A DNA stretch of 64,000 nt from Eledone cirrhosa. Lineage: Eukaryota. This document shows, piece after piece, positions 1 through 53,400 of this stretch; the stretch's first letter is position 1, and every line of letters begins with the position of its first letter. A program made the translations under genes and the position numbers. The stretch lies in assembly GCA_964016885.1 (NCBI GenBank), contig OZ024756.1, forward strand, positions 930,001 to 994,000, written 5' to 3'. A model generated the notes under the pieces. That model worked only from the letters and a program-made list of their open reading frames with translations. It made no database searches and had not been told where the DNA came from.

Positions 1-3000
1 GTCTTGTTGTGAGAGTTGTAGGGGGGGTCTAGTGTGACATAGGGGCAGTGTGGTGGAGTGGTGGTAGGTAGTATAACGGTAGAGAGAGGGGGGGAGAGGT
101 CTAGTGTGACATAGTGACAGTGTGGTGGAGTGGTGGTAGGTAGTATAACGGTAGAGAGGGGGGAGGTCTAGCGTGACATAGTGACAGTGTGGTGGAGTGG
201 TGGTAGGTAGTATAACGGTAGAGAGCGGGGGGGGGGGAGGTCTAGAGTGACATAGTGACAGTGTGGTGGAGTGGTGGTAGGTAGTATAACGGTAGAGAGA
301 GGGGGGGGGGGAGGTCTAGTGTGACATAGTGACAGTGTGGTGGAGTGGTGGTAGGTAGTATAACGGTAGAGAGCGGGGGGGGGGAGGTCTAGAGTGACAT
401 AGTGACAGTGTGGTGGAGTGGTGGTAGGTAGTATAACGGTAGAGATAGGGGGGGGGGGAGGTCTAGTGTGACATAGTGGCAGTGTGGTGGAGTGGTGGTA
501 GGTAGTATAACGGTAGAGAGAGGGGGGGAGGTCTAGTGTGACATAGTGACAGTGGTGGAGTGGTGGTAGGTAGTATAACGGTAGAGAGAGGGGGGGAGGT
601 CTAGTGTGACATAGTGACAGTGTGGTGGAGTGGTGGTAGGTAGTATAACGGTAGAGAGAGGGGGGGAGAGGTCTAGAGTGACATAGTGACAGTGTGGTGG
701 AGTGGTGGTAGGTAGTATAACGGTAGAGAGAGGGGGGGGAGGTCTAGTGTGACATAGTGACAGTGTGGTGGAGTGGTGGTAGGTAGTATAACGGTAGAGA
801 TAGGGGGGGGGGGAGGTCTAGTGTGACATAGTGGCAGTGTGGTGGAGTGGTGGTAGGTAGTATAACGGTAGAGAGAGAGAGGGAGAGGTCTAGTGTGACA
901 TAGTGACAGTGTGGTGGAGTGGTGGTAGGTAGTATAACGGTAGAGAGAGGGGGGGGGAGGTCTAGTGTGACATAGTGACAGTGTGGTGGAGTGGTGGTAG
1001 GTAGTATAACGGTAGAGAGAGGGGGGGGAGGTCTAGTGTGACATAGTGACAGTGTGGTGGAGTGGTGGTAGGTAGTATAACGGTAGAGAGAGGGGGGGGG
1101 GAGGTCTAGTGTGACATAGTGACAGTGTGGTGGAGTGGTGGTAGGTAGTATAACGGTAGAGAGAGGGGGGGAGGTCTAGTGTGACATAGTGGCAGTGTGG
1201 TGGAGTGGTGGTAGGTAGTATAACGGTAGAGAGAGGGGGGGAGGTCTAGTGTGACATAGTGGCAGTGTGGTGGAGTGGTGGTAGGTAGTATAACGGTAGA
1301 GAGAGGGGGGGAGGTCTAGTGTGACATAGTGGCAGTGTGGTGGAGTGGTGGTAGGGTAGTATAACGGTAGAGAGAGAGGGGGAGAGGTCTAGTGTGACAG
1401 AGTGGCAGTGTGGTGGGGTGGTGGTAGGTAGTATAACGGTAGAGAGAGGGGGGAGGTCTAGTGTGACATAGTGACAGTGTGGTGGAGTGGTGGTAGGTAG
1501 TATAACGGTAGAGAGAGGGGGGAGAGGTCTAGTGTGACATAGTGGCAGTGTGGTGGAGTGGTGGTAGGTAGTATAACGGTAGAGAGAGGGGGGAGAGGTC
1601 TAGTGTGACATAGTGGCAGTGTGGTGGAGTGGTGGTAGGTAGTATAACGGGAGAGAGAGGGGGGAGAGGTCTAGTGTGACATAGTGGCAGTGTGGTGGAG
1701 TGGTGGTAGGTAGTATAACGGTAGAGAGAGAGGGGGAGAGGTCTAGTGTGACAGAGTGGCAGTGTGGTGGGGTGGTGGTAGGTAGTATAACGGTAGAGAG
1801 AGGGGGGGAGAGGTCTAGAGTGACATAGTGGCAGTGTGGTGGAGTGGTGGTAGGTAGTATAACGGTAGAGAGAGAGGGGGAGAGGTCTAGTGTGACAGAG
1901 TGGCAGTGTGGTGGGGGTGGTGGTAGGTAGTATAACGGTAGAGAGAGAGGGGGGAGGTCTAGTGTGACATAGTGGCAGTGTGGGGGAGTGGTGGTAGGTA
2001 GTATAACGGTAGAGAGAGAGGGGGGGAGGTCTAGTGTGACATAGTGGCAGTGTGGGGGAGTGGTGGTAGGTAGTATAACGGTAGAGAGAGAGGGGGGGGG
2101 AGGTCTAGTGTGACATAGTGGCAGTGTGGGGGAGTGGTGGTAGGTAGTATAACGGTAGAGAGAGGGGGGGAGAGGTCTAGAGTGACATAGTGGCAGTGTG
2201 GTGGAGTGGTGGTAGGTAGTATAACGGTGTAGAGAGAGAGAGGGAGAGGTCTAGAGTGACATAGTGCAGTGTTGTGGAGTGGTGGTAGGTAGTATAACGG
2301 TAGAGAGAGGAGGGAGAGGTCTAGAGTGACATAGTGGCAGTGTGGTGGAGTGGTGGTAGGTAGTATAACGGTAGAGAGAGAGAGGGGAGGTCTAGAGTGA
2401 CATAGTGGCAGTGTGGTGGAGTGGTGGTAGGTAGTATAACGGTAGAGAGAGAGAGGGAGAGGTCTAGAGTGACATAGTGGCAGTGTGGTGGAGTGGTGGT
2501 AGGTAGTATAACGGTAGAGAGAGAGAGGGAGAGGTCTAGAGTGACATAGTGGCAGTGTGGGGGAGTGGTGGTAGGTAGTATAACGGTAGAGAGAGGGGGG
2601 AGGTCTAGAGTGACATAGTGGCAGTGTGGTGGAGTGGTGGTAGGTAGTATAACGGTAGAGAGAGGGAGAGGTCTAGTGTGACATAGTGGCAGTGTGGTGG
2701 AGTGGTGGTAGGTAGTATAACGGTAGAGAGAGAGAGGGAGAGGTCTAGAGTGACATAGTGACAGTGTGGTGGAGTGGTGGTAGGTAGTATAACGGTAGAG
2801 AGAGAGAGGGAGAGGTCTAGTGTGACATAGTGGAAGTGTGGTGGAGTGGTGGTAGGTAGTATAACGGTAGAGAGAGAGAGGGAGAGGTCTAGTGTGACAT
2901 AGTGGCAGTGTGGTGGAGTGGTGGTAGGTAGTATAACGGTAGAGAGAGAGGGGGAGAGGTCTAGCGTGACATAGTGGCAGTGTGGTGGAGTGGTGGTAGG

Positions 3001-4834
3001 TAGTATAACGGTAGAGAGAGGGGGAGAGGTCTAGCGTGACATAGTGGCAGTGTGGTGGAGTGGTGGTAGGTAGTATAACGGTAGAGAGAGAGAGGGAGAG
3101 GTCTAGTGTGACATAGTGGCAGTGTGGTGGAGTGGTGGTAGGTAGTATAACGGTAGAGAGAGGGGGAGAGGTCTAGAGTGACATAGTGACAGTGTGGTGG
3201 GGTGGTGGTAGGTAGTATAACGGTAGAGAGAGAGGGGGAGAGGTCTAGAGTGACATAGTGGCAGTGTGGTGGAGTGGTGGTAGGTAGTATAACGGTAGAG
3301 AGAGGGGGAGAGGTCTAGAGTGACATAGTGGCAGTGTGGTGGAGTGGTGGTAGGTAGTATAACGGTAGAGAGAGGGGGAGAGGTCTAGAGTGACATAGTG
3401 GCAGTGTGGTGGAGTGGTGGTAGGTAGTATAACGGTAGAGAGAGGGGGAGAGGTCTAGAGTGACATAGTGGCAGTGTGGTGGAGTGGTGGTAGGTAGTAT
3501 AACGGTAGAGAGAGGGGGAGAGGTCTAGAGTGACATAGTGGCAGTGTGGTGGAGTGGTGGTAGGTAGTATAACGGTAGAGAGAGGGGGAGAGGTCTAGAG
3601 TGACATAGTGGCAGTGTGGTGGAGTGGTGGTAGGTAGTATAACGGTAGAGAGAGGGGGAGAGGTCTAGAGTGACATAGTGGCAGTGTGGTGGAGTGGTGG
3701 TAGGTAGTATAACGGTAGAGAGAGGGGGAGAGGTCTAGAGTGACATAGTGACAGTGTGGTGGAGTGGTGGTAGGTAGTATAACGGTAGAGAGAGGGGGAG
3801 AGGTCTAGAGTGACATAGTGGCAGTGTGGGGGAGTGGTGGTAGGTAGTATAACGGTAGAGAGAGGGAGAGGTCTAGAGTGACATAGTGACAGTGTGGTGG
3901 AGTGGTGGTAGGTAGTATAACGGTAGAGAGAGGGGGAGAGGTCTAGAGTGACATAGTGGCAGTGTGGGGGAGTGGTGGTAGGTAGTATAACGGTAGAGAG
4001 AGGGAGGAGAGGTCTAGAGTGACGGTGACTGTGTGGTGGAGTGGTGGTAGGTAGTATAACGGTAGAGAGAGGGGGGAGGTCTAGTGTGACATAGTGGCAG
4101 TGTGGTGGGGTGGTGGTAGGTAGTATAACGGTAGAGAGAGGGAGGAGAGGTCTAGAGTGACGGTGACTGTGTGGTGGAGTGGTGGTAGGTAGTATAACGG
4201 TAGAGAGAGGGGGGAGGTCTAGTGTGACATAGTGGCAGTGTGGTGGGGTGGTGGTAGGTAGTATAACGGTAGAGAGAGGGAGAGGTCTAGAGTGACATAG
4301 TGGCAGTGTGGTGGAGTGGTGGTAGGTAGTATAACGGTAGAGAGAGAGGGGGAGAGGTCTAGCGTGACATAGTGACAGTGTGGTGGAGTGGTGGTAGGTA
4401 GTATAACGGTAGAGAGAGGGGTGGTGGTCTAGTGTGACATAGTGGCAGTGTGGTGGGGTGGTGGTAGGTAGTATAACGGTAGAGAGAGGGAGGAGAGGTC
4501 TAGAGTGACGGTGACTGTGTGGTGGAGTGGTGGTAGGTAGTATAACGGTAGAGAGAGGGGGGAGAGGTCTAGTGTGAGATAGTGAGAGTGTGGTGGGGTG
4601 GTGGTAGGTAGTATAACGGTAGAGAGAGGGGGGGGGAGAATCCTAGAGTGACAGAGTGACAGTGTGGTGGAGTGGTGGTAGGTAGTATAACGTTAGAGAG
4701 AGGGGGAGGGAGGGGGATGGGGGGGGGGAGGTCTAGAGTGACAGAGTGACAGTGTGGTGGAGTGGTCGTAGCTGATATAACGATAGAGAGAGAGAGAGAG
4801 TGGGAGAGAGCGGAGAGTGGTCTAAAGTGACATA
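1..4834. repeat. 70-bp G-rich tandem minisatellite (about 68 copies, runs off the window start)
   Basis: Unit GGTCTAGWGTGACATAGTGRCAGTGTGGTGGAGTGGTGGTAGGTAGTATAACGGTAGAGAGAGGGGGAGA repeats with exact 70-bp period around 3301-3790. The purine tract varies in length and the array degenerates after ~4680. Confidence 0.97.
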
Positions 4835-5588: not shown

Positions 5589-5774
5589 GTGGATTGGCAG
5601 TATCGGTAGAGGGTCGGACGCCATGCTTTAACGCATAGAGTTACGGCCCTTGCCATTCTGAGTTCAAATCCCGCCGAGGTTAACTTTGATTTTCATCCTT
5701 ATGGGGTCGATAAAATAAAGTACCAGTAATGCACTGGGTAATTGCTGGCCTTGTGCCAAAAGTAGAAACAATTA
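5589..5774 (+). mobile_element. Full-length tRNA-derived SINE inserted in a hammerhead palindrome
   Basis: A/B boxes, Nin-like core and 3' end GTAGAAACAATT. It interrupts the inverted repeat 5403-5872. Confidence 0.88.
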
Positions 5775-5776
5775 TA

Positions 5777-8051: not shown

Positions 8052-8240
8052 GGGCGGTGAATTGGCAGTATCGGTAGAGGGTTGGACGCCATGCTTTCTA
8101 GCATAGTTACGTCCCTTTACAGTCTGAGTTCAAATCCCGCCGAGGTTAACTTTGCCTTTCATCCTTACGGGGTCGATGAAATAAAGTACCAGTAATGTAC
8201 TGGGTAATTGCTGGCCTTGTGCCTAAAGTAGAAACAATTA
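8052..8240 (+). mobile_element. tRNA-derived SINE (Nin/Deu-like core)
   Basis: A/B boxes and core, followed by (TATG)n. Confidence 0.88.
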
Positions 8241-10854
8241 TGTATGTATGTATGTATGTATGTATGTATGTATGTATGTATGTTGGTGTTAATGGTAACA
8301 TGTATCCCAGTACAACCTGTCTCATGGTCGGGTCGTTGGTGACTAAACTGGTAACTCCACCAACTTTCTTGGTGAGGAGGGTGACTTTGGACATCCTGCA
8401 GGACTAAAAACAAAACCTGTCAAAGGGCAAAGGAGCTCTTAAGAGTCAATGGCCATCCAAAATCACCGGGAGAGATGACCCCTTAGCTTTTGTCAAGGCA
8501 GAATTCTAGGAGACGGAAAACTCTGATATAACACCTGCAACCCTGATGGTATCCAATGATGTTGACTTGTTCTTCTTTTTGGTAAATATCATCTTGGTTA
8601 AGAGAGTGGGACTGGCTTTGTGCAGTGCCTTTGCTCACTATAAAAGCTTCACGGCACAGGCATTGCTTTATATCTGAGATCTCTCTGCACTTGTCATCAC
8701 ATGGTACCATGGGCCTAGCACTATGTGCCAATAATTGTCACAAGTGCAGTGTTTGTACCAGAGTTTTCAAGTCGCTGGCTGGACTAAAAAGTCACACTCG
8801 TTCAGCGCATCGGTGGGGGTTCTCCTTCATGGATATGAAGTAGTGGCCGTACTCGAAAACGAGTTGGCAGCCACCATGTATGTATGTATGTATGTATGTA
8901 TGTATGTATGTATGTATGTATGTATGTATGTATGTATGTATGTATGTATGTATGTATGTCAGGTCACTCTTGAGTGCTGCTGGTAACATGTAACCCAGTA
9001 CAACCTGTCACATGGTCGGGTCTTCAGCGAATAAACCGGCAACCCCACCAAGTTTAATTGGTGAGGAGGGTGATTTTGGACACCCTGCAGGTCAAAAAAC
9101 AAAACTTGACAAACGGCGGAAGAACTCATAAGAGTCAACGGCCATCCAAAATGTGTAAATATATATATACTTATGTATACATGTATGTATATATGGATAT
9201 GTGTGTATATATGCGCGGGGACATAAATAATCGGGCTGGAAACCCGATCGCGTGGTTAAACCGCTGGGAGTGAAGGACCTCTAGCCTTTGTCAGGGCATT
9301 CTTCTAGGAGAAGGCAACTCAGGAAACTGGGATAACTCCAATATAAAACCTGTGGCTCAGTAGTTACCGATGTCGATCTTTTCTTCTTTTCGGGTTATAG
9401 CTACTGTCGCTCAGAGAGTGGGATTGGCTCAGTGCACAGTCTTTCCTCACTTAAAAAAAATCTTCACGCACAGGCATTGCACGATAGCATTAATTGACAA
9501 TTATTGGTAATGTAATATCGTGCAATGGCCATACTCGATAACGAGGGGGCAGCCATCATATATATATATGTATGTGTGTATGTATGTATTTATGTATGTA
9601 TGTATAAAGGGCAAAGGAGCTCTTAAGAGTCAATGGCCATCCAAAATCACCGGAAGAGATGACCCCTTAGCCTTTGACAAGGTAGAATTCTAGGAGAAGG
9701 AAAACTCTGATATAACACCTGCAACCCTGATGGTATCCAATGATGTTGACTTGTTCTTCTTTTTGGTAAATATCATCTTGGTTAAGGGAGTGGGACTGGC
9801 TTTGTGCAGTGCCTTTGCTCACTATAAAAGCTTCACGGCACAGGCATTGCTTTATATCTGGAGATCTCTCTGCACTTGTCGTCACATGGTACCATGGGCC
9901 CAGCACTATGTGTCAATAATTGTCACAAGTGTAGTGTTTGTACCAGAGTTTTCAAGTCGCTGGCTGGACTAAAAAGTCACACTCGTTCAGCGCATTGGTA
10001 GGGGTTCTCCTACATGGATATAAAGTAGTGGCCCTACTCGAAAACGATTTGGCAGCCACCATGTAAATATGTATGTATGTATGTATTTATGTATGTATAT
10101 ATGTATGTGTGTATGTATGTATTTATGCATGTATGTATGTATATATGTATGTTATGTCAGGTCGCCCTTTAGCGCTATTTGTAACATGTAATCCAGTACA
10201 ACCTGTGCATGGTCGGGCCGTCGGCAACTAAATTGGCAACCCCACCAAGCTTGTTTGGTAAGGAGGGTGATTTTGGACACCCTGCGGGATGAAAAGCAAG
10301 GCCCGTCAAAGGGCGGAGGAACTCAGGGGAGTCAACGGCCATCTAATAAAATATTCTTCTTTTGGTAAAGCGAGCGACTCCTAGTCTTCATTAAGACATC
10401 TCCCTAAGAGAAGGTCACTCTGATATAAAACCTGCGACTTCATTTGTATCCAATGATGAAGACCAGTTCTTCTTTTTGGGTAAATGTATTCAATGTTCAG
10501 GGAGTGTGATTGGCCCCGTGTAAAGCCTTCCTTCACTTAAAAAGCTTCAAACAGAGGCATCCCTTGATATGTGACATTTTCTGCGATGCCTGGTATTGCT
10601 GGCCATAGACAAGTCCTTAGCAGTACTAAAAAGACACGCGCGTGATGCTCATACTTAAGTATCAAGCGATGGCATTTCTCGAAATCGAGTTGCAGCCATC
10701 ATTATGTATGTAGTTATGTATGTACGTACGCATGTATGTATGTATGTATGTATGTATGTACGTACGCATGTATGTATGTATGTAGGTACGTACGTACTTA
10801 TGTATGTATGTATGTATGTATGCATGTATGTATGTATGTATGTATGTATGTATG

Positions 10855-12122
10855 TGAGATTTCACTGTCAAGGTTGCTGTATCGATTGACAGTGCTTCCC
10901 AGGTAGACAAACTGATCAACCACTCCAAGTCGTTTGCCATACACATAGATGTTTGGTTCAGTGTACTGCTTACCAGGGGCAGGTTGGTACATGACGACGG
11001 TTTTCTTGAGACTGACAGTCACTTAGGATTAGGAAAGCAAGTGATGCTTTCGGAAAGCTAGAAAGGCGACTCTGGGGTCGGCGAGACATATGCAGGAGGA
11101 CAAAGGTAAAGGTGTACAGGGCATGTGTGCTCTCTTGTCTTCTTTATGCCTGCGAGACCTGGGTCACATATCGACACCACCTTAAGCAATTGGAGCGTTT
11201 CCATCAGATGTGTCTCAGACGGATCCATGGCGTTCACTGGAGGGACCACATAAGTGATGTCGAGATTTTGGAAAGCTCTATGTGTGACAGTATAGAAGCT
11301 CTTGTGCTTAAGCAACGACTCAGTTGGAGTGGTCACCTTGCCAGGATGAAGGATTCTAGAATAGCAAAACAACTCTTTTATGGAGAGTTGGTTAAAGGAA
11401 AACGACCGTCACATAAACCAAAAAAGAGGTATAAGGACTCCTTGAAAGCCTCTCTGAAAGACGCTAACATCTCTGCTGATACATGGGAAAATATTGCTGC
11501 TGATCGTAATAAATGGAGAAAGACTGTATATGAGGGAAAAGTTGCCTATGAGGCATCTCGAATCGCACACGAGAAAGTAAAGCGGGATGTGAGGAAGGGC
11601 ATTGCTGTTGCACTTCCAGACGGCGAGGGTCCTCCTATGGTGCTGACATGCAGCGTCTGTGCGAGACTCTGCCTAAGCAAAGCTGGACTCGAAAGTCATC
11701 TTCGCAGTCATAAAGTAAGACCAGTGGTTGACTACCAGGCTGCTATTGGAGATGCTACTCATCATGCTTGCCAAACATGTGGTAGAGAACGTAAATCAGC
11801 AGGAAGGCTCAAGCGACATGCAAAAGTACACGAACTCCAACCACAGCCGACTATTCCCAGTGAATGTTTTGGTTGCCGACTCTGTGCAAGACATTTTAGA
11901 TCATTGGCTGGGCTAAAAAGCCACATTCGATCGCAGCACTGTTAGTTGCTATCGTGTGTGTGTGTGTATAGATATGTTTATGTGTGTGCGTGTATGTGTA
12001 TATATATATGTATATTATTATTGTTGTTGTCGTTATTATTATTGTTGTTATTATTATTATTATTGTTATTAATGTATGTGTGTGTGTATATATATGTGTG
12101 TATATATATGTGTGTGTGTATA

Positions 12123-12255: not shown

Positions 12256-12871
12256 ATGTATGTATGTATGTATGTATGTATGTATGTATGTATGTATGTA
12301 TGTATGTATGTATGTATGTAGGTTAACATGTAACCCAGTACAACCTGTCGCATGGTCGGGTCGTCGGCGACTAAACCGGCAACCCCACCAAGTTTACTTG
12401 GTGAGGAGGGTGATTTTGGACACCCTGCAGGACAAAAAACAAAACCTGACAAAGGGCGGTAGAACTCATAAGAGTCAACGGCCATCCAAAAGTGTGTAAA
12501 TATGTATACACACATGTACATATGTATGTATATGTATATGTGTATATGCATGGGTGCATGTGTATGTATATGCGCGGGGACATAGAAATAATCGGGCTGG
12601 ACACCCGATCGCGCGGTTAAACCACTGGGAGTGAATGACCCCTAGCCTTTGTCAGGGCATTCTTCTAGGAGAAGGTAACTCAGGAGACTGGGATAACTCC
12701 GATATAAAACCTGTGGCTCAGTAGTTACCGATGATGTTGATCTTTTCTTCTTTTCCGGTTATAGCTAGTGTCACTCAGAGAGTGGGATTGGCTCAGTGCA
12801 CAGTCTTTCCTCACTTTAAAACATCTTCACGCACAGGCATTGCACGATAGAATTAATTGATAATTATTGAT

Positions 12872-13128
12872 GGTTGTTTCTGCGTTGGGCACAGGGCCGG
12901 TGGTTGCCCAGTGCATTGCTGGTGCTTTGTTTTGTCGACCCCGTGGATTGGCAGTATCGGTAGAGGGTCGGACGCCATGCTTTGACGCATGGAGTTACGG
13001 CCCTTGCCATTCTGAGTTCAAATCCCGCCGAGGTTAACTTTGCCTTTCATCCTTGCGGGGTCGATGGGGTGGAGTGCCGGTGGTGCGCTGGGTGGTTGCT
13101 GGCCTTGTGCCGGGGGTAGAAACAATTA
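12872..13128 (+). mobile_element. SINE with an inverted copy of its 3' end upstream, A-to-G hypermutated
   Basis: SINE at 12943-13128 plus an inverted 3' arm at 12872-12942. AATTATTGAT is duplicated at both flanks. Confidence 0.88.
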
Positions 13129-13765
13129 TTGATGATGGTATATCGTGCAATGGCCATACTCGATAACGAGGGGGCAGCCATCATCATATATGTAGGTACG
13201 TACGTACTTATGTATGTATGTATGTATGTATGTATGTATGTATGTATGTATGTATGTATATATGTTTGTATGTACGTACGCATGTATGTATGTAGGTACG
13301 TACGTACTTATGTATGTATGTATATATGTATACATGTATGTATGTATACACTTAATTATTGTAAATGTAATGCTATTTGCAATAGTCCGTACTAATAAAA
13401 GAGAATGAGTTGGTTGTAAGAGAGTTTTCTTTTTGTTTAGACTAAAAATGAACTGATAAATATTTTTTCACAGAAGTAAATGAAAGTGTGTATATATTAT
13501 ATGCAAATTTCGGTTGCAGTTTACAAAACCTACAACCTTAAACATCATTATTTAACAAACAACCCCCCACCAAAAAAAAAAAAAAACAAAAGAGCTTTGC
13601 TTTAAGATAAGTTAGCCATCTTAAGAGACTCGTTATACAAACAAGAAACTATTTCTAAAAAGACATTCATGAAAATACTTCCGCAACGCCAGGGCTTTAG
13701 GAAGCCACACATCAAAGGATAGTTTACGACTGCACATCTACTGCATTAATCTATCTGGTTTATGA

Positions 13766-17850: not shown

Positions 17851-18014
17851 AAAATATCCATTTCTCACTATTCAGACACTAGCCCCGCCTCTTTCAATCC
17901 TTATTGGTTCCACTGATGTGTACAATCTGACATTTTTTGTAAGTCTAATGGAACTCCTCCTTGAGAGATGGGGAGGGGCTTCATGGAGTTACATATTTGC
18001 AACTTGATGAAGGC

Positions 18015-21000
18015 GGGGTCTCGGAGTTAATAATAGATATCTTAGAGGTAGGTGATGTCTCGGAGTTAAGAATAAATATCTTAGAGGTAGGTGATGTCTC
18101 GGAGTTAAGAATAGATATCTTGGAGGAAGGTGATGTCTCGGAGTTAAGAATATATATCTTGGAGGAAGGTGATGTCTCGGAGTTAAGAATAGATATCTTG
18201 GAGGAAGGTGATGTCTCGGAGTTAAGAATAAATATCTTGGAGGAAGGTGATATCTCGGAGTTAAGAATAAATATCTTGGAGGAAGGTGATATCTCGGAGT
18301 TAAGAATAAATATCTTGGAGGAAGGTGATGTCTCGGAGTTAAGAATAGATATCTTGGAGGAAGGTGATATCTCGGAGTTAAGAATATATATCTTGGAGGA
18401 AGGTGATATCTCGGAGTTAAGAATATATATCTTGGAGGAAGGTAATGTCTCGCAGTTAAGAATAGATATCTTGGAGGAAGGGGATATCCCGGAGTTAAGA
18501 ATAAATATCTTGGAGGAAGGTAATGTCTCGGAGTTAAGAATAGATATCTTGGAGGTAGGTGATATCTCGGAGTTAAGAATAAATATCTTGGAGGAAGGTG
18601 ATGTCTCGGAGTTAAGAATATATATCTTGGAGGAAGGGGATATCCCGGAGTTAAGAATAAATATCTTGGAGGAAGGTAATGTCTCGGAGTTAAGAATAGA
18701 TATCTTGGAGGAAGGTGATATCTCGGAGTTAAGAATATATATCTTGGAGGAAGGTGATATCTCGGAGTTAAGAATAGATATCTTGGAGGTAGGTGATATC
18801 TCGGAGTTAAGAATAAATATCTTGGAGGAAGGTGATGTCTCGGAGTTAAGAATAAATATCTTGGAGGAAGGTGATGTCTCGGAGTTAAGAATATATATCT
18901 TGGAGGAAGGTGATATCTCGGAGTTAAGAATATATATCTTGGAGGTAGGTGATATCTCGGAGTTAAGAATAAATATCTTGGAGGAAGGTGATGTCTCGCA
19001 GTTAAGAATATATATCTTGGAGGAAGGTGATATCTCGGAGTTAAGAATAGATATCTTGGAGGAAGGTGATATCTCGGAGTTAAGAATAGATATCTTGGAG
19101 GAAGGTGATATCTCGGAGTTAAGAATAGATATCTTGGAGGAAGGTGATGTCTCGGAGTTAAGAATAAATATCTTGGAGGAAGGTGATGTCTCGGAGTAAG
19201 AATATATATCTTGGAGGAAGGTGATATCTCGGAGTTAAGAATATATATCTTGGAGGAAGGTGATATCTCGGAGTTAAGAATATATATCTTGGAGGTAGGT
19301 GATATCTCGGAGTTAAGAATAAATATCTTGGAGGAAGGTGATGTCTCGCAGTTAAGAATATATATCTTGGAGGAAGGTGATATCTCGGAGTTAAGAATAG
19401 ATATCTTGGAGGAAGGTGATATCTCGGAGTTAAGAATAGATATCTTGGAGGAAGGTGATATCTCGGAGTTAAGAATAGATATCTTGGAGGAAGGTGATGT
19501 CTCGGAGTTAAGAATAAATATCTTGGAGGTAGGTGATATCTCGGAGTTAAGAATAGATATCTTGGAGGAAGGTGATGTCTCGGAGTTAAGAATATATATC
19601 TTGGAGGTAGGTGATATCTCGGAGTTAAGAATAAATATCTTGGAGGAAGGTGATATCTCGGAGTTAAGAATAAATATCTTGGAGGAAGGTGATGTCTCGG
19701 AGTTAAGAATAAATATCTTGGAGGAAGGTGATGTCTCGGAGTTAAGAATAGATATCTTGGAGGAAGGTGATATCTCGGAGTTAAGAATAAATATCTTGGA
19801 GGTAGGTGATATCTCGGAGTTAAGAATAGATATCTTGGAGGTAGGTGATATCTCGGAGTTAAGAATAAATATCTTGGAGGAAGGTAATGTCTCGCAGTTA
19901 AGAATTGATATCTTGGAGGAAGGTGATGTCTCGGAGTTAAGAATAAATATCTTGGAGGAAGGTGATGTCTCGCAGTTAAGAATTGATATCTTGGAGGTAG
20001 GTGATATCTCGGAGTTAAGAATAAATATCTTGGAGGAAGGTAATGTCTCGCAGTTAAGAATTGATATCTTGGAGGAAGGTGATGTCTCGGAGTTAAGAAT
20101 AAATATCTTGGAGGAAGGTGATGTCTCGCAGTTAAGAATAGATATCTTGGAGGTAGGTGATATCTCGGAGTTAAGAATAAATATCTTGGAGGAAGGTAAT
20201 GTCTCGCAGTTAAGAATTGATATCTTGGAGGAAGGTGATGTCTCGGAGTTAAGAATAAATATCTTGGAGGAAGGTGATGTCTCGCAGTTAAGAATTGATA
20301 TCTTGGAGGAAGGTGATGTCTCGCAGTTAAGAATATATATCTTGGAGGAAGGTGATATCTCGGAGTTAAGAATAGATATCTTGGAGGAAGGTGATATCTC
20401 GGAGTTAAGAATAGATATCTTGGAGGAAGGTGATATCTCGGAGTTAAGAATAGATATCTTGGAGGAAGGTGATGTCTCGGAGTTAAGAATAAATATCTTG
20501 GAGGAAGGTGATGTCTCGGAGTAAGAATATATATCTTGGAGGAAGGTGATATCTCGGAGTTAAGAATATATATCTTGGAGGAAGGTGATATCTCGGAGTT
20601 AAGAATATATATCTTGGAGGTAGGTGATATCTCGGAGTTAAGAATAAATATCTTGGAGGAAGGTGATGTCTCGCAGTTAAGAATATATATCTTGGAGGAA
20701 GGTGATATCTCGGAGTTAAGAATAGATATCTTGGAGGAAGGTGATATCTCGGAGTTAAGAATAGATATCTTGGAGGAAGGTGATATCTCGGAGTTAAGAA
20801 TAGATATCTTGGAGGAAGGTGATGTCTCGGAGTTAAGAATAAATATCTTGGAGGTAGGTGATATCTCGGAGTTAAGAATAGATATCTTGGAGGAAGGTGA
20901 TGTCTCGGAGTTAAGAATATATATCTTGGAGGTAGGTGATATCTCGGAGTTAAGAATAAATATCTTGGAGGAAGGTGATATCTCGGAGTTAAGAATAAAT

Positions 21001-23820
21001 ATCTTGGAGGAAGGTGATGTCTCGGAGTTAAGAATAAATATCTTGGAGGAAGGTGATGTCTCGGAGTTAAGAATAGATATCTTGGAGGAAGGTGATATCT
21101 CGGAGTTAAGAATAAATATCTTGGAGGTAGGTGATATCTCGGAGTTAAGAATAGATATCTTGGAGGTAGGTGATATCTCGGAGTTAAGAATAAATATCTT
21201 GGAGGAAGGTAATGTCTCGCAGTTAAGAATTGATATCTTGGAGGAAGGTGATGTCTCGGAGTTAAGAATAAATATCTTGGAGGAAGGTGATGTCTCGCAG
21301 TTAAGAATTGATATCTTGGAGGTAGGTGATATCTCGGAGTTAAGAATAAATATCTTGGAGGAAGGTAATGTCTCGCAGTTAAGAATTGATATCTTGGAGG
21401 AAGGTGATGTCTCGGAGTTAAGAATAAATATCTTGGAGGAAGGTGATGTCTCGCAGTTAAGAATAGATATCTTGGAGGTAGGTGATATCTCGGAGTTAAG
21501 AATAAATATCTTGGAGGAAGGTAATGTCTCGCAGTTAAGAATTGATATCTTGGAGGAAGGTGATGTCTCGGAGTTAAGAATAAATATCTTGGAGGAAGGT
21601 GATGTCTCGCAGTTAAGAATTGATATCTTGGAGGAAGGTGATATCTCGGAGCTAAGAATAGATATCTTGGAGGTAGGTGATGTCTCGGAGTTAAGAATAG
21701 ATATCTTGGAGGTAGGTGATATCTCGGAGTTAAGAATAAATATCTTGGAGGAAGGTGATGTCTCGGAGTTAAGAATAAATATCTTGGAGGAAGGTGATGT
21801 CTCGCAGTTAAGAATTGATATCTTGGAGGAAGGTGATATCTCGGAGCTAAGAATAGATATCTTGGAGGTAGGTGATGTCTCGGAGTTAAGAATAGATATC
21901 TTGGAGGTAGGTGATATCTCGGAGTTAAGAATAGATATCTTGGAGGAAGGTGATATCTCGGAGTTAAGAATAGATATCTTGGAGGAAGGTGATATCTCGG
22001 AGTTAAGAATAAATATCTTGGAGGTAGGTGATATCTCGGAGTTAAGAATAAATATCTTGGAGGAAGGTGATATCTCGGAGTTAAGAATTGATATCTTGGA
22101 GGTAGGTGATATCTCGGAGTTAAGAATATATATCTTGGAGGAAGGTGATATCTCGGAGTTAAGAATTGATATCTTGGAGGTAGGTGATATCTCGGAGTTA
22201 AGAATAGATATCTTGGAGGAAGGTGATATCTCGGAGTTAAGAATAGATATCTTGGAGGTAGGTGATATCTCGGAGTTAAGAATAGATATCTTGGAGGAAG
22301 GTGATGTCTCGGAGTTAAGAATATATATCTTGGAGGTAGGTGATATCTCGGAGTTAAGAATTGATATCTTGGAGGTAGGTGATATCTCGGAGTTAAGAAT
22401 AGATATCTTGGAGGAAGGTGATGTCTCGGAGTTAAGAATAAATATCTTGGAGGAAGGTGATATCTCGGAGTTAAGAATAAATATCTTGGAGGAAGGTGAT
22501 ATCTCGGAGTTAAGAATAAATATCTTGGAGGAAGGTGATATCTCGGAGTTAAGAATTGATATCTTGGAGGAAGGTGATATCTCGCAGTTAAGAATAAATA
22601 TCTTGGAGGAAGGTGATATCTCGGAGTTAAGAATAAATATCTTGGAGGAAGGTGATATCTCGGAGTTAAGAATAAATATCTTTGGAGGAAGGTAATGTCT
22701 CGGAGTTAAGAATAAATATCTTTGGAGGAAGGTGATGTCTCGGAGTTAAGAATAAATATCTTTGGAGGTAGGTGATATCTCGGAGTTAAGAATAGATATC
22801 TTGGAGGAAGGTAATGTCTCGCAGTTAAGAATAAATATCTTGGAGGTAGGTGATGTCTCGCAGTTAAGAATAAATATCTTGGAGGAAGGTGATATCTCGG
22901 AGTTAAGAATATATATCTTGGAGGAAGGTGATGTCTCGGAGTTAAGAATATATATCTTGGAGGAAGGTGATATCTCGGAGTTAAGAATATATATCTTGGA
23001 GGAAGGTGATGTCTCGCAGTTAAGAATAAATATCTTGGAGGAAGGTGATATCTCGGAGTTAAGAATATATATCTTGGAGGAAGGTGATATCTCGGAGTTA
23101 AGAATTGATATCTTGGAGGTAGGTGATATCTCGGAGTTAAGAATATATATCTTGGAGGAAGGTGATATCTCGGAGTTAAGAATTGATATCTTGGAGGTAG
23201 GTGATATCTCGGAGTTAAGAATAGATATCTTGGAGGAAGGTGATATCTCGGAGTTAAGAATAGATATCTTGGAGGTAGGTGATATCTCGGAGTTAAGAAT
23301 AGATATCTTGGAGGAAGGTGATGTCTCGGAGTTAAGAATATATATCTTGGAGGTAGGTGATATCTCGGAGTTAAGAATTGATATCTTGGAGGTAGGTGAT
23401 ATCTCGGAGTTAAGAATATATATCTTGGAGGAAGGTGATATCTCGGAGTTAAGAATTGATATCTTGGAGGTAGGTGATATCTCGGAGTTAAGAATATATA
23501 TCTTGGAGGAAGGTGATATCTCGGAGTTAAGAATTGATATCTTGGAGGTAGGTGATATCTCGGAGTTAAGAATAGATATCTTGGAGGAAGGTGATATCTC
23601 GGAGTTAAGAATAGATATCTTGGAGGTAGGTGATATCTCGGAGTTAAGAATAGATATCTTGGAGGTAGGTGATATCTCGGAGTTAAGAATAGATATCTTG
23701 GAGGTAGGTGATATCTCGGAGTTAAGAATAGATATCTTGGAGGAAGGTGATATCTCGGAGTTAAGAATATATATCTTGGAGAAAGGTGATATCTCGGAGT
23801 TAAGAATAGATATCCTGGAA
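18015..23820. repeat. 33-bp tandem minisatellite (about 175 copies)
   Basis: ATATCTTGGAGGWAGGTGATRTCTCGSAGTTAAGAATADAT family. Its stop-free frame produces the ILEEGDISELR pseudo-ORFs. Confidence 0.97.
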
Positions 23821-25525
23821 GGAATAGCGACCGCGATTTAAATACAAACGGAGAGACCTTGCTAGACTTCTGTTCTAACAATGGAATCTCTATTATGAAC
23901 ACCTTCTGCAACAGCATAGAGGCATCCATAAATATACTTGGTATGGAGGAATCAGGGACAGAAATCAATAATTGATTTTGTAATTGTCTCTGATCTCTTT
24001 CGTTCTGTGCTGGATGTACATGTTAAGCGAGGGGCTGAGCTGTCAACTGATCACCATCTAGTTATCTGCAGCTTGAAACTACCTAACGCCAAAGAGGCCC
24101 ACAAAACTGGCAAGTCCAGAGCGACCTACAAGGATAAAGTGGGAAGCATTGGTGGATAAGGAAGTCAGGACCAGGTTTTCAACTCCTATTGCATCCAAAT
24201 TCAGAGAACTCCCTGGGCAAACTGAGGATGTTGAGACAGAGTGGAGATTGTTCAGTACAGCAGTTTCTGCTTCAGCTGTTAAATGCTGTGGGTGAAAGAG
24301 GCTTGGTATGGGGAGGAATTGCAGGAGGACTACTTGGTTCAATTAAGAGTTAAAAAAATGCCATCCTTGCAAAGAGGGAGGCTAACAAAGCTTGGCTTGG
24401 AAATAAGTCCTTCTTCTTGCACTTACGGTACAAGCAGGCACGAAATATCGCAGAAGCGCCCAAAGTTAAGACATGGGAGGATTTTGGGGTTAAGCTGGAA
24501 TCTGACTTCAGATCAGCAAATAAAGTGTTCTGGCAGGTCATCCGCCGACTTCGTAATAAGAAGCCCTCCTCCACAGATTCTATCAAGAACGCGCCCTGGG
24601 TTTCTCCTCTCTTTAGAGGGGTGCTTTCTCCAGAGGTGGAGAGAATAATTTGCTGATCTCCTAAACCGGATCACAACAGCATCTTTGGATGTACACGAGG
24701 TGTATCTGGGAGTGGTGAATAATCTGTCAGAGGCTGAGGTCGCAAGAGCAGTTAAAAAGCGCATATGTGGCAAAGCCGCTAAGGAAGATGAAATCCGGCC
24801 CGAGATGTTAAAAGCCTTAAATAGAGAAGGTATTCTCTGGCTGACTCGTGTGTACCGGGTGGCCTGGAAGGGTACCTAAGCAATGGCAATCAGGATTAAT
24901 AATCTCAATTTTCAAAAAGGGAGTTCAGAGAGATTGTTCCAATTACAAAGGGACCTTATTGTTAAGGCTCCCTGGTAAAGTCTATGCTAAGTGTCTAGCA
25001 AAGAGCCGCAGGTAGATTGTCGAGTCCATGCTAGCTGATGAACAGTGCGTTTTCGCCCCGAACACAGCACAGCCAACCAAATATTCACACTGCGGCAGGT
25101 ATTCGAGAAATCGTGGGAGTATTGCCAAGAAGTTTATTCTTGTTTTGTTGACCTTGAGAAGACATGACCGCGCTCCTCGGGACCTACTGTGGAAGGTTCT
25201 GCAAGAGTATGGGGTTGATGGTCAGCTTCTTGCTGCCCTAATGTCTCTATACAAATGCCAGAGTATTTGTTTTTGGATAAATGCTGCTAAATCGAAACCA
25301 TTCAATGTGGGAGTTGAACTCCACCAAGGGCGTGTACTGTCACCTCTCTGTTCATTATTTACATGAACAGGATTGGCATACGGAGCTCGGTTGGAAGTGG
25401 CATCATGAATGGCGGGTGTAAAATCAGTCAGTCGGCTGGAATTTTCAGACGACATGGTGTTACTTAACTCAACAGAAAGTTATCTTCGACTTACACTTGA
25501 TAGGTTTGATGCCGAGTGCTGCAGG
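23816..25525 (+). mobile_element. Decayed RTE-clade LINE (APE endonuclease C-terminus plus RT)
   Basis: Frameshifted fragments NTNGETLLDFCSNNGISIMNTF, HKYTW, IIDFVIVS...STDHHLV (APE); DEIRPEMLKAL, GVELHQGRVLSPL, LEFSDDMVLL (RT). Confidence 0.88.
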
Positions 25526-32501: not shown

Positions 32502-32612
32502 TTCAAATCCCGCCGAGGTTAACTTTGCCTTTCATCCCTACGGAGTCGATAAAATAAAGTACCAGTAATGTACTGGGTAATTGCTGGCCTTGTGCCAAAA
32601 GTAGAAACAATT
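32502..32612 (+). mobile_element. 5'-truncated SINE (Nin/Deu-like) with ~19-bp TSD
   Basis: Core sequence present. ATTATTTAAATATGATATT occurs at 32485-32503 and 32610-32628. Confidence 0.88.
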
Positions 32613-32689
32613 ATTTAAATATGATATTAAATAATATTTAATCGGCTTTTCAATGATATTTACCTTCCATTTAAATCTCAATTTAGACA

Positions 32690-47629: not shown

Positions 47630-50600
47630 GTTTTGCGAGGTTTTTGATATGAAATCGTGTGTCGAAACAAATATTGTTATACTTGGGGAGGGTCATATTT
47701 GTGTAATATTGCCAGAATTAATAACAGAACACACCCACTGTTTGGTTGGTTTTCGCTTTTCGCTTCTGTGTCTTTTATATCGGTTAATTTAATTTATTCG
47801 GTCCTCAATGTTGCCATTGACTGACCAACGGTCAAAAATACAGATACAATATAGACACAAACACATATATATAGTTTATCAACGTTCTTTCGTTGCACAT
47901 CTGCAACATCGTCAGTGGTGCTATTGTTTCCTCCCGTTGCATTGTATTTTCTACGCCATCTTTATTTAGTCTGTTTATATATTTATTTATTTGTTTATTT
48001 TTATTTTTATTTTTTCTTTGTCTTCTTTGCGCATGCGTTTGCGTGTGTGTATAGTGTTTTGTTTGATGTGTGTTCGTGATTGGGTGACTGTGTATTGGTT
48101 AATGTATTCTATCTTTACTAGTGTGTGTTTATATGTGTTTGTTGTTATTGTGCTTGTGTATGTATTTATTTATTTATCTATTTATTTATTTATTTATACT
48201 TCTCTTAGGTCAGTGTTGTTTGTTTGGGTGTTGTTGTTTTTCCATTCATTTTTTCTGTTTAGCCTTCGCCTTCTAAGTTCTATTTCACTGGCCTCTCTGA
48301 TTTGCCTATTTGATATTATTCTAATTTCTATGTTGTCTATGTTACGGTCGTGTTGTTGTCTGGCATGTTCGTATAGTACTGAACCGTTTTATCGTCCTTT
48401 TAGTTCCCCCCAGTGTTGGTCTATCCTTTCACCTATGCTACGAGCTGTCTCGCTTATGTATGTTGTTATCATGTTTCTGCAAGTACCCCCTGTACATCTT
48501 ATGCTATAGACTACGTTTCTAGTTTTACAGTTTATCCGGGGGTTTACCTTACATATGATACATTTCCTATTAGTACAGTGGGTTTTATTAAAAGGCTAGG
48601 TTTTGCTGATCAGGGATTTCATGGTGGTTCCTGGATTTTCTACCACCTTAATCTTTAAGTGGGTCTTTCTCAGGGCCTTTCTACACTGGTTAGCTAATTT
48701 CCCTCCAGGGGTGGCGTCCACAAACATGACACTCTGGTATCTCTGGTTGTCGTACCATGAGGTGGCTTTCCCTATCTTATGTCTAGTCCTATCTAAGCTA
48801 TTCCATGATTTGCTCCTGTATAATGGGCAAATTCCTTTCATGTCCAGTTCTATGAGGGTCTTATACTTCTCCGTGGCTCCTTCGTATACTCTGATTCTGT
48901 CTCTTTGGTTGTAGCCAGAGAACTGCATGCGGTTGATGAAGTGTTGGATGTGTCTTTCCATTTCTGTTGGGTCGCACATGCGGGACACATTCTTCATCAC
49001 TCGTACCAAGTCTGCTATCAGAATATTAAACGTAGCACTACTGGACATTGCTGAATTTTTGAGTATCAGGTATTTGGAGGCCATGGGTTTTGCATAGTGT
49101 GAGTGGAGAATTTGGGCTCTCTCGTCTATAGCGTTAATCCAGAGTTCCGTGTCTAATACAGGTAGTCTATTGTTAGGGTGTTTGGAAGGGTAGTCGATAG
49201 TTACAGTTATACTCTGGTGTATGGAATTAGCTATCTGCTGGATGCTTTCCATTGTGCTACGCTCTAAATCCAACTTGTTAGTGCTCTCTTGTGGGGATGT
49301 TCTTATAACTATATTGATATCGTCTACGTAACGAGAGTACATGAGGTCTATGGAGCTCTCATCAAGGAGATCTTTAAGTCTCCTTTCCCACCATACCATA
49401 AAAAGGTTGGCAACGTCACCAGCTATGCTGACGCCAATGGCTGCTCCCTCATTTTGGGTGTAGATCTTCTCGTTGATCTTGAATATGTGGCCCTTTAGGG
49501 CAGTTTTGATACTAGCCCCTATTGCATGTGCGACAATTTTTCTTACCTGATCATTGTTTTGGGGGGTCCGTATAGCTTTGGTCCACCCAATCCACCTTAC
49601 CATGGGAGTCTTTTTAGCTATTAAGGTTATGGTGGGGGTCTACCTCTTATGGGTATACTGGGGCAGAAACGTCTAAGGTCATGGCTGTCTAGGTAGTCAG
49701 TGTCGTAGGTAAGTCTAAGTAGGAGGCCCAGTTCGTCTGTGTCGACGTCGCAGAACTCCACCTCACTCTCAATGATCATCTCCACACATTTTTCCACAGC
49801 AAAATCAATGTTAATGGATGGGTACAGTGATACCACATCCATGCTGCCTATTATGCAGTAGGATAGGTTCCTGTTTTTGTTGCACTCACTGATTCTGCTG
49901 AGGAGGTCCTCTTTACTGTCACAATCATCTGGGGACATCTTGATTATGGGGCGTATAACCATTGAGGGGAAGTAGGAGATCCTGTAGTTGCTAGCTATAT
50001 TTGCTCCGCATACGGGTCTTGTTGGTGGTCCTTTTGTCGGGTCGTCGACTGTCTTGTGGTCTTTGCGGAGCCCATACAAGGGTCGTATGCCATTGTTAGA
50101 CGCCTGGAAGTTTTTGGCAGCGCGTCTGCTTGGCTTTAGGATGTCGCTCCACATCATCATGTGAGCGTTGAGGATTTTCTCTCTCCCATCATGTATTTGC
50201 TGTGCAATTTCGCTCGTGTTGGTGATGTGGGGTTGCATAGCCTTGATGTAGTTCGGCATGCTGTCTATTGACATCCTACCAGACTTATCCGTGGGTAAAC
50301 ATACTACCTCACCATCCCTTGTGCGCTGCTTGAGGCTAACCAAGGTTTCCTCCCAAATTGTTGGACCTCTGGTCTGCTCTGTCTCTTAGTATACCGGTCT
50401 ACTATTTGTCTAATCTTATTTCTAGCTATGGTGAACTGTGCCTCTATCTCGTCATCTATTTGTTGTGGTATGCACATTCTTTTATTAAAGGGTAACCTCG
50501 TAGAATAGATATTACCCATCCTATATGTTTTGTCAGCTGGGTTGAAGAATAGTTTCTCTAAGGGGTTGTCATTTTATCTATCGTCATAGTTGTGTGTGTT

Positions 50601-52094
50601 GCTATTATTGTTATTATGGTGGTTGTTGTTGTTCCTATCATTAGCATTATTATTATTGTTATGATTGCTACATGTATTGTTGTTATGATTGCTAGATGTA
50701 TTTTTGCTGTGATTGTTAGATGTATTGTTGTTGTTTTCTCCACCGTTATTGTTGTTGTTACTGTTATTTCTATCATTGTGGTTGTTACTTTTATTATGTT
50801 TCTTGTTTTTGTTGTGTCTATCATTAATGTTGCTACATGTATTATTTCTATTATTACCACTGTGGTTGTTGTTGTTATTCGTATTGTTACCGTTATTACT
50901 ACTGTGGTCGCTGCTGCTGTGTCTGTAGTTAATGTTTCTATTATTATTATTATTGTGGTTGTTGTTGTTGTTCTGTCTATCGTTAATATTATTACCATTA
51001 TTACTATTTCTCACTCTCCTGCTATTGTTATTGTTATGACTATTACTATTATAGCTGTTATTTCTATATTCAGAGTTATTGTTTATATTACTACTACCGT
51101 TATTATTGTTGTTGTTGTTGTTGTTGTTGTTTACTTTTGCATTCCAACGTATTTTTGTGAAACACTTTTCCAGCTCCGTTTTGCACTCCATAGGGTTAAT
51201 CTTTTTGTAGATGGCAAATTTTGGTGGTAGCTGCAGGATTTGTTGTTCTTGTTCACTGATTAAAGTGTTCCCATAAATATTTACTGTGTGGTCATTGGTA
51301 AATTCTTCCGGTAGTTTTACATCAGTCATACGGATATTGTTGATGTCATCTGGGTATTTTTGAGAATATTCTATTTTTCTTTCTTCTAGTTTTTTCTTAT
51401 TCATCCATTCTAATTTCTTATTGAAATGCCTATTGCATTCGTTTCGGGCGTATTTCGTTTCACGTCGGATGACGCTCATGAAGTCATCCCTTTCGTTTGG
51501 TGTGGTGAGATTTCGGACATCCTTACCGTTAATGCGTTTCTGTCTGTAAAGTTCGTTGACTTTTGTGTATGTTGTTCTTTTCATATTAACTGTTATTGTG
51601 TGTTTTAGTCGTTCAGCTTCTGTTTTGCTCAATAATGAATTATTTACTTGTTTTGATATGTTTGTTGTGTATATTTTGGAGGAAACACAGTGGTTTAAGA
51701 AGCGGATTTGTTCTGTTGTTATTGTAGTTTTTATATAACAGAAAACAGTGTCTTTCAATAACCTTTCAGCTTGGCACAAGCTAATGCCATAGCGGCGATG
51801 AATTAGGTTTGCGAGGTTTTTGATATGAAATCGTGTGTCGAAACAAATATTGTTATACTTGGGGAGGGTCATATTTGTGTAATATTGCCAGAATTAATAA
51901 CAGAACACACTCACTGTTTGGTTGGTTTTCGCTTTTCGCTTCTGTGTCTTTTATATCGGTTAATTTAATTTATTCGGTCCTCAATGTTGCCATTAACTGA
52001 CCAACGGTCAAAAATACAGATACAATATAGACACAAACACATATATATAGTTTATCAAAGTTCTTTCGTTGCACATCTGCAACATCGTCAGTGG
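47630..52094 (-). mobile_element. Decayed near-full-length Penelope-like element (RT + GIY-YIG) with direct pLTRs
   Basis: ORF runs from 51872 with stops and frameshifts: LPPKFAI..KIRW, LPTDKSG, LYGLRKDHK, TRPVCGA, GSMDVVSLYPSI, GAAIG..AGDVANLFM, YSRYVDD, then a GIY-YIG region to ~48240. Direct repeats 47630-47917 and 51808-52094 each carry a hammerhead core CTGACGA..GAAA. Confidence 0.92.
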
Positions 52095-53400
52095 AAGAAC
52101 GTGTCCCGCATGTGCGACCCAACAGAAATGGAAAGACACATCCGACACCAGTTCTCTGGCTACAACCAAAGAGACAGAGTCAGAGTATACGAAGGAGCCA
52201 CGGAGAAGTATAAGGCCCTCATAGAACTGGACATGAAAGGAATTTGCCCATTATACAGGAGCAAATCATGGAATAGCTTAGATAGGGCTAGACATAAGAT
52301 AGGGAAAGCCACCTCATGGTACGACAACCAGAGATACTAGAGTGTCATGTTTGTGGACGCCACCCCTGGAGGGAAATTAGCTAAACAGTGTAGAAAGGCC
52401 CTGAGAAAGACCCACTTAAAGATTAAGGTGGTAGAAAATCCAGGAACCACCATGAAATCCCTGATCAGCAAAACCTACCCTTTTAAGAAAACCCACTGTA
52501 CTAATAGGACATGTATCATATGTAAGGTAAACCCCCGGATAAACTGTAAAACTAGAAACATAGTCTATAGCATAAGATGTACAGAGGGTACTTGCAGAAA
52601 CATGATAACAACATACATAGGCGAGACAGCTCGTAGAATAGGTGAAAGGATAGACCAACAATGGGGGGAACTAAAAGGACGAAAAAACGGTTCAGTACTA
52701 TACGAACATGCCAGACAGCAACACGACGGTAACATAGACAACATAGAAATTAGAATAATATCTAAAGATAGAAATGACCCAGCAGATAGGCAAATCAGAG
52801 AGGCCAGTGAAATAGAACTTAGAAGGCCAAGGATAAACAGAAAAAAATTAATGGAATAATAACAACACCGAAACAAACAACACTGACCTAAGAGAAGTAT
52901 AAATAAATAAATAAATAGATAAATAAATAAATACATACACAAGCACAATAACAACAAACACATATAAACACACAGTAGTAAAGATAGAATACATTAACCA
53001 ATACACAGTCACCCAATCACGAACACATATACATATACACACACGCAAACGCATGCGCAAAGAAGACAAAGAAAAAATAAAAATAAAAATAAACAAATAA
53101 ATAAATATATAAACGGACTAAATAAAGATGGCGTAGAAAATACGATGCAACGGGAGGAAACAATAGCACCACTGACGATGTTGCAGATGTGCAACGAAAG
53201 AACTTTGATAAACTATATATATGTGTTTGTGTCTATATTGTATCTGTATTTTTGACAGTTGGTCAGTCAATGGCAACATTGAGGACCGAATAAATTAAAT
53301 TAACCGATATAAAAGACACAGAAGCGAAAAGCGAAAACCAACCAAACAGTGAGTGTGTTCTGTTATTAATTCTGGCAATGTTACACACATATGACCCTCC

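Follow-up and report, generated by a model that had tools for sequence, protein, structure and literature searches.

How does a single retroelement copy come to carry a dense run of A-to-G changes confined to one strand and to the arms of a potential hairpin? This question arises from a SINE hairpin in the genome of Eledone cirrhosa, located in the 64,000-nucleotide stretch of DNA analysed here (C17:930001-994000, hereafter the window), with searches extending to 3.0 Gb of genome sequence. The original prediction held that a + strand transcript, probably of an RTE-derived host, folded into the hairpin, was hyper-edited by ADAR, and was then retrotransposed, which would have written RNA edits into DNA.

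The hairpin and its host element

The hairpin resides in a non-autonomous RTE-type element (unit U; 12321..13190, + strand) that is slightly 5′-truncated, sits in a (GTAT)n tract, and has 39 other scored copies with 90-96% identity. The left arm (12858..12942, +) comprises a target-site flank and an inverted SINE 3′ half, and lacks 19 nt at its inner end relative to four sibling copies described below. The loop (12943..13039, +) is the 5′ half of a forward SINE and is essentially unedited, and the right arm (13040..13136, +) consists of the 3′ half of that SINE and a target-site flank. The full-length forward SINE spans 12946..13129 (+), and the RTE-type 3′ tail of U (13136..13190, +) runs into the (GTAT)n microsatellite. 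We take + as the RNA sense strand because of the position of this tail, and the siblings are truncated at the other end.

The proposed RTE descent of the host was borne out through a related unit, U2, which shares the 5′ part and tail of U and preserves the final codons of an RTE-like ORF, with a zinc finger. This ORF end is 41% identical (E=1e-6) to the 3′ part of an RTE-like LINE ORF located outside the hairpin element (11016..11945, +), which we presume from its motifs to belong to the RTE clade. An autonomous RTE partner of U was not found; the 5′ end of U gave no match to an autonomous element, and its tail is linked to RTE via U2. Copies of U that are empty carry a palindromic AT-rich site into which the SINE inserts in either direction. 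Elsewhere in the window, U and U2 units are nested by insertion into each other's microsatellite tails (8239-10800), a 39-nt minisatellite with copies about 95% alike extends over 17872-24000, and a 617-nt inverted repeat (97%) surrounds RT-like and GIY-YIG-like ORFs at 48309-52990, presumably marking a Penelope-like element.

The SINE family is abundant, with at least 71,483 unedited exact matches to its 35-nt core in the genome. The SINE label rests on size, copy number, and target duplications, and searches for a tRNA-like head with ARAGORN and Rfam gave no match. The family is also rich in subfamily alleles, and 33 polymorphic columns were masked in the context analysis described below.

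A-to-G changes in the window hairpin and its siblings

The reference for calling changes combined an unedited sister element with the 25 closest copies of the SINE. An unedited sister SINE at 5589..5775 (+) served as comparison copy, and others are found at 8057-8241 and 32502-32615. The right arm has A-to-G changes at 20 of its 32 A nucleotides and no other substitutions. These include all 18 forward-arm changes originally reported, which fall within 13055-13115 without any other type of change, and two more at 13131 and 13134. In the left arm, 15 of 25 A nucleotides are changed, 13 of them within 12872-12934, in agreement with the 12-13 claimed. About two further substitutions had been reported for this arm, of which a single C-to-T remains, directly 5′ of an edited base in an edit-created CpG, while another proved to be a subfamily allele. 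The stem thus carries 35 A-to-G changes at 57 A nucleotides and one other substitution. The A-to-G changes all read on the + strand, as originally noted, with no T-to-C.

The loop differs sharply from the stem (35/57 versus 1/20, Fisher p=1e-5), and its one changed A is ambiguous, being located at the 19-nt deletion junction, such that the loop has no certain edit. Two loop changes that had been counted as edits are ordinary SINE subfamily alleles. Among 28 host-element copies, the A-to-G background is about 1.0% per A, against which the excess in the window has a binomial p of about 4e-55. The edited fraction depends on the 5′ neighbour in the order T>A>C>G (T 18/22, A 12/21, C 5/11, G 0/3), where the G-preceded class comprises only three sites. 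Taken together, these sequence features support the assignment of the cluster as an ADAR-type hyper-editing footprint, which is of one change type, on one strand, limited to the duplex, and depleted at sites with a 5′ G. The edits had been thought to disrupt the hairpin; the edited RNA is instead predicted to fold at -162.6 kcal/mol (z=-11.4) compared to -202.5 kcal/mol for an unedited model, indicating that the structure is weakened and not destroyed. Because the edited RNA still folds, a transcript of the hairpin could be edited again.

The window hairpin is one of five dispersed copies, with the other four on C1, C2, C3, and C6. The five copies, on five contigs, have the same tail, and each has its own 5′ end and flanks. 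A target-site duplication can be read in one of the five (L032), and the others sit in microsatellites. The four siblings carry 27, 24, 22, and 19 A-to-G changes at 65 stem A nucleotides, for a range of 19-35 over the five copies. At the 57 sites comparable over all five, 18 are never edited, 11 are always edited, and 28 are variable, and nine are edited in the window copy only. In two copies, CpGs created by editing have since decayed, and one sibling contains a later, unedited SINE insertion with its own target duplication (L035:1310-1493).

The presence of 11 common and 28 differing sites indicates that editing occurred more than once, and rules out one event followed by copying. The single editing episode originally envisaged is likewise contradicted by the non-nested edit sets of the five copies. 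A fully edited founder followed by reversion was rejected, since it needs 60 reversions among 160 site-copies at a non-CpG background of 1.6%, as were single-gain trees, the best of which (of 105) still needs seven reversions (p=0.0016). Each copy would represent a different edited RNA molecule. Somewhat favoured is a scenario in which the five copies derive from five transcripts of one unedited source that has been lost. A nearly even chance is given to a core-edited founder whose G-U-paired hairpin was re-edited in later rounds. The same SINE positions are edited again in unrelated hosts, and site preference can therefore explain the shared core.

The proposed search for siblings and an unedited parent yielded the four siblings and did not yield the parent. 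A junction pattern allowing one mismatch gave six matches without the parent, corresponding to the four siblings, one unrelated SINE, and one independent, unedited hairpin. The parent was also absent among the tail-junction matches (30 examined of 33 found), and in this same set, copies of U with a forward SINE at the hairpin site are edited only in the five siblings. Hairpins at three further loci in U (L179, L187/188, and L196) and at one elsewhere (L068) are unedited, which argues that hairpin DNA alone does not mutate in this A-to-G fashion. As a separate observation, SINE hairpins of the same shape, with an inverted 3′ part and a forward copy, arise repeatedly at palindromic AT-rich targets (L068:1423-1924; L179, L187/188, L196).

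Edited copies elsewhere in the genome

Retrotransposition of edited RNA was part of the original prediction, and two independent pairs of source and retrocopy elsewhere in the genome display the same process. In the first pair, the retrocopy (L146, the same region as L117) is a 3.2-kb copy of C18:5,802,961-5,806,499, a region with six paralogues. It starts inside a repeat, stops exactly at a U2 RTE-type tail, and lies in a TA-rich microsatellite on C2. Over the first 2,054 alignment columns, it differs from its source by 78 A-to-G and six other changes. These edits are concentrated in three places, with 22/52 in an antisense SINE, 11/33 in an older antisense SINE piece, and 40/100 in a (CTA)n tract, whereas the unique parts between the clusters are nearly unchanged (0/69, 0/31, 1/108, and 1/264). 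The source locus is still present, and its SINE is unedited. One feature runs against our reading: a (TAG)n stretch in L146 is unedited despite its potential to pair with the edited (CTA)n tract. Simple repeats at L146:1196-1452 and 2700-3310, (CTA)n and (TA)n, also look A-to-G edited, with an unreliable alignment for (TA)n. Such repeats suggest that editing can remodel microsatellites.

The second retrocopy (L124/L201) is a 2.8-kb copy of C2:20,464,065-20,466,735 and carries an inversion of its 5′ part, of the kind seen in twin priming. In the inverted part, A-to-G changes are found at 19 of 43 A nucleotides in the SINE, compared to 4 of 178 beyond it. The 3′ part has 82 A-to-G among 150 changes, including 59 at the 133 A nucleotides of a 94% palindrome. 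The two sets of edits lie on opposite chromosome strands and on one RNA strand. The polarity follows the RNA across the inversion, which puts editing ahead of reverse transcription. As in the first pair, the source locus persists with an unedited SINE, from which it follows that editing came after SINE insertion in both cases. In this unselected set, edits fall on 17/36 A nucleotides after T, 28/43 after A, 18/34 after C, and 6/40 after G; the fraction after C is no lower than that after T, which counts against our reading. At about G000:C2:20,464,080-20,464,450 (L207/L208), we also note a 370-nt near-perfect palindrome of no named family that is heavily edited in the retrocopy.

Four narrow pattern searches with one SINE family were used to find further cases, and their number is thus a lower bound. 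An antisense pattern gave 25 matches, which correspond to the five siblings, a single-ORF LINE (19 matches spread over 18 copies), and one further locus. The 18 LINE copies have an RLE-type end and encode a reverse transcriptase on the edited strand, with Pfam RVT_1 detected in both of the two RT-region ORFs scanned. We take this single-ORF RLE-type LINE to belong to the R4/Dong clade. Its 5′ UTR contains antisense SINE pieces with A-to-G changes: about seven shared edits in one insert, 4-15 (a core and private ones) in a second, and 12 in a private insert. No sense SINE complementary to the antisense insert was found inside these elements, and the missing duplex partner argues against our reading there. 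The SINE inserts in the (TAA)n tract of this 5′ UTR (L098-L116) are all antisense to the LINE, which suggests that this element keeps gaining potential duplex partners of SINE RNA. Another locus (L115) has 11 A-to-G changes upstream of an RTE-like reverse transcriptase on the same strand. Hence, the A-to-G strand is the RT-coding strand in 18 RLE-type LINE loci and one RTE-like locus.

Two further patterns gave five and six matches, with five new loci (L117, L120, L123, L124, and L126). L120, presumably in a Penelope-like repeat, adjoins a GIY-YIG ORF. Its six edits recur on the opposite strand in an inverted duplicate, the arms of which are only 89% alike. At L123, there are 13, 10, and 6 A-to-G changes in one antisense and two sense SINE pieces within 1.6 kb. 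These pieces lie in apparently single-copy sequence (L132/L133; G000:C2:367,005,870-367,007,445), where no retroelement tail was found nearby; a genome search found no source copy, a result that does not by itself prove rarity, and both absences count against our reading. The weakest of the five is L126, with seven A-to-G and four other changes. Two loci with 3-4 A-to-G changes (L042 and L054) were left out, as best matches to a G-rich query favour such copies, and what looked like a strand bias near L117, within an inverted repeat of 1.35 kb, was attributed to microsatellite noise. Altogether, the separate inserts or copies with edits number at least ten. Matches to adenosine-deaminase (editase) domains lie at four loci of this genome (C6:13.64 Mb, C1:146.45 Mb, C1:320.73 Mb, and C25:17.35 Mb), with ADAR-type deaminase genes on C6, C1, and C25.

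Neighbour preferences were also assessed for a pooled set of 13 edited pieces, obtained from 15 selected pieces after two duplicates were dropped. The edited fractions are 0.62 for T, 0.39 for A, 0.19 for C, and 0.10 for G, of which those for T and A are inflated, as each locus had to match up to three sites fixed by the search patterns; unedited copies are flat at 0.9-1.7%. The sparing of G-preceded A nucleotides that had been noticed in the window holds in this larger set, in which 5 of 52 such sites are edited compared to 118 of 279 others (p=3e-6).

Origin of the edits and relation to known systems

On the basis of these sequence comparisons, we consider it very probable that ADAR hyper-edited the transcripts of retroelements and that non-LTR reverse transcriptases wrote the edits into germline DNA. 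Specifically, a SINE inserted at the palindromic site of an RTE-type element as an inverted 3′ half and a full forward copy, and the element's transcript is predicted to form a stem of about 100 bp. ADAR would then have deaminated 30-60% of the stem adenosines in both arms, sparing the loop and most G-preceded A nucleotides. Copies are found inserted at five germline loci, for which an RTE reverse transcriptase presumably read inosine as G. The strand, the duplex restriction, the neighbour bias, and the existence of five dispersed copies all agree with the prediction that a + strand transcript was edited and then retrotransposed. The same route probably ran many times in this genome, through RTE-mobilised transductions and in RLE-type LINE, RTE-like, and Penelope-like hosts.

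Among the alternatives, the one that survives best is still very unlikely. In this view, the substrate of ADAR, or of some other adenosine deaminase, was DNA, either the cDNA strand of the RNA:DNA hybrid in target-primed reverse transcription or extruded hairpin DNA. In vitro, ADARs can edit DNA in hybrids (PMC12925331), and where SINEs sit antisense in LINE 5′ UTRs, the strand with the edits coincides with the cDNA strand of the SINE itself. However, edits on the host cDNA strand would read as T-to-C on the host sense strand, where A-to-G is observed. The explanation is contradicted for both retrocopy pairs, given the RNA-tracking polarity of L201 and the unedited source SINEs, and the four other hairpin loci are unedited.

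An assembly or polishing artefact is less probable again. The G alleles were read from the assembly, but such an error would have to account for five loci that have 11 common sites yet differ elsewhere, for the decay of created CpGs in two copies, for the later SINE with its own duplication inside one sibling, and for the L120 edits repeated in both divergent arms. We give equally little credence to error-prone reverse transcription, in which a dNTP imbalance would generate runs of A-to-G without ADAR. Every edited copy of known structure did pass through reverse transcription, but within a single copy the changes stop where the duplex ends (unique parts of L146, 0-1 per 30-260 A; loop, 1/20), and the upstream-G depletion fits ADAR and is missing from background A-to-G changes. 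Least credible of all are GC-biased gene conversion, reversed CpG decay, or a SINE subfamily that is G-rich. This SINE does have many subfamily alleles, but relative to the SINE the arms are altered with opposite polarity, on one genomic strand and without T-to-C, and all G-rich patterns have 2-25 matches compared to 71,483 unedited cores. The original prediction had named a common G-rich subfamily without an inverted partner as one finding that would refute it, and the G-rich forward-arm patterns match only hairpin copies (2/2 and 4/4). APOBEC-type G-to-A change on the sense strand was also dismissed, as the SINE consensus and the source loci polarise the change as A-to-G.

Returning to the hyper-editing of retroelement transcripts, the edited copies most likely arose as a side effect of the heavy editing of repeats and not as a selected function. 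It is improbable, although worth stating, that edited RNA also overwrites its own locus through cDNA gene conversion and that SINE RNA guides trans editing of LINE transcripts with antisense SINEs. Candidate examples would be L123 and the partnerless inserts of the RLE-type LINE. If locus overwriting were true, RNA editing would be a strand-biased germline mutagen that turns an edited A into a genomic G at native genes.

The edited copies could act as fossils of individual edited RNA molecules in the germline, where ADAR action on retroelements is otherwise hard to see. Genome scans could address whether deamination blocks or merely marks retrotransposition, the extent to which editing shapes repeats in heavily editing animals, and whether genomic A-to-G changes at edited sites are RNA-templated. 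Previous work has put down genomic G at edited sites to selection and not templating (PMC7186786), and the accessible portion of another study describes no case of RNA-templated genomic G (PMC5974252). In addition, G-rich repeat copies can mislead both repeat dating and editing calls.

Several known systems resemble parts of this route. Octopus has an exceptionally high editing rate (PMC4365171, PMC5625713, PMC9068888), and SINEs dominate its repeats (Albertin 2022, PMC9068888). Transcriptome hyper-editing of inverted repeats shares with our case the inverted SINE substrate, the clustering, and the upstream-G depletion (PMC4365171, PMC5625713, PMC9068888), the last being a published ADAR motif (Porath 2014, PMC4365171; 2017, PMC5625713). 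However, those edits are RNA-versus-genome mismatches, whereas the edits described here sit in the genome. Against our reading, L1 RNA was reported not to be edited by ADAR1 in human cells (PMC5224506). The bipartite non-autonomous RTE LINEs (Kojima 2018, PMC5786205) are like U, whose body is short and internally deleted and whose RTE-type tail runs out in a microsatellite. U differs from them in bearing a SINE hairpin. In plant organelles, C-to-U edited RNA returns to DNA via reverse transcription, a retroprocessing that differs from our case in its enzyme and compartment, its site-specific edits, and its mostly in-place replacement.

The closest precedent is the A-to-G hypermutation of avian retroviruses, including Rous-associated virus and the LTR and inverted repeat of avian leukosis virus (1994-95 work cited in PMC12925331). 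As in the hairpin, ADAR-type duplex hyper-editing affected about half of the adenosines and was kept by reverse transcription (PMC12925331). Those are exogenous viruses in cells, whereas the edits described here reside in the assembled genome of an animal, with non-LTR elements and transduced genomic RNA as hosts. Our literature search, which covered few subscription journals and no supplements, found no report of A-to-G hyper-edited germline non-LTR copies.

APOBEC-edited endogenous retroelements are similar in showing clustered, strand-biased, single-type hypermutation fixed in the genome, with unedited sources (Knisbacher and Levanon 2016, PMC4866542; Zaranek 2010, PMC2873906). In that system, G-to-A changes result from cytidine deamination of cDNA, mainly in vertebrate LTR elements, whereas the changes described here are A-to-G, made at the RNA level, and restricted to duplexes. 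As described in the accessible text, the large 2016 screen was filtered for G-to-A and not A-to-G, with invertebrates as the negative control (PMC4866542), and thus passed over the class found here. A-to-I edits can probably become heritable DNA via non-LTR retrotransposition, as a mirror image of the G-to-A changes made by APOBEC enzymes.
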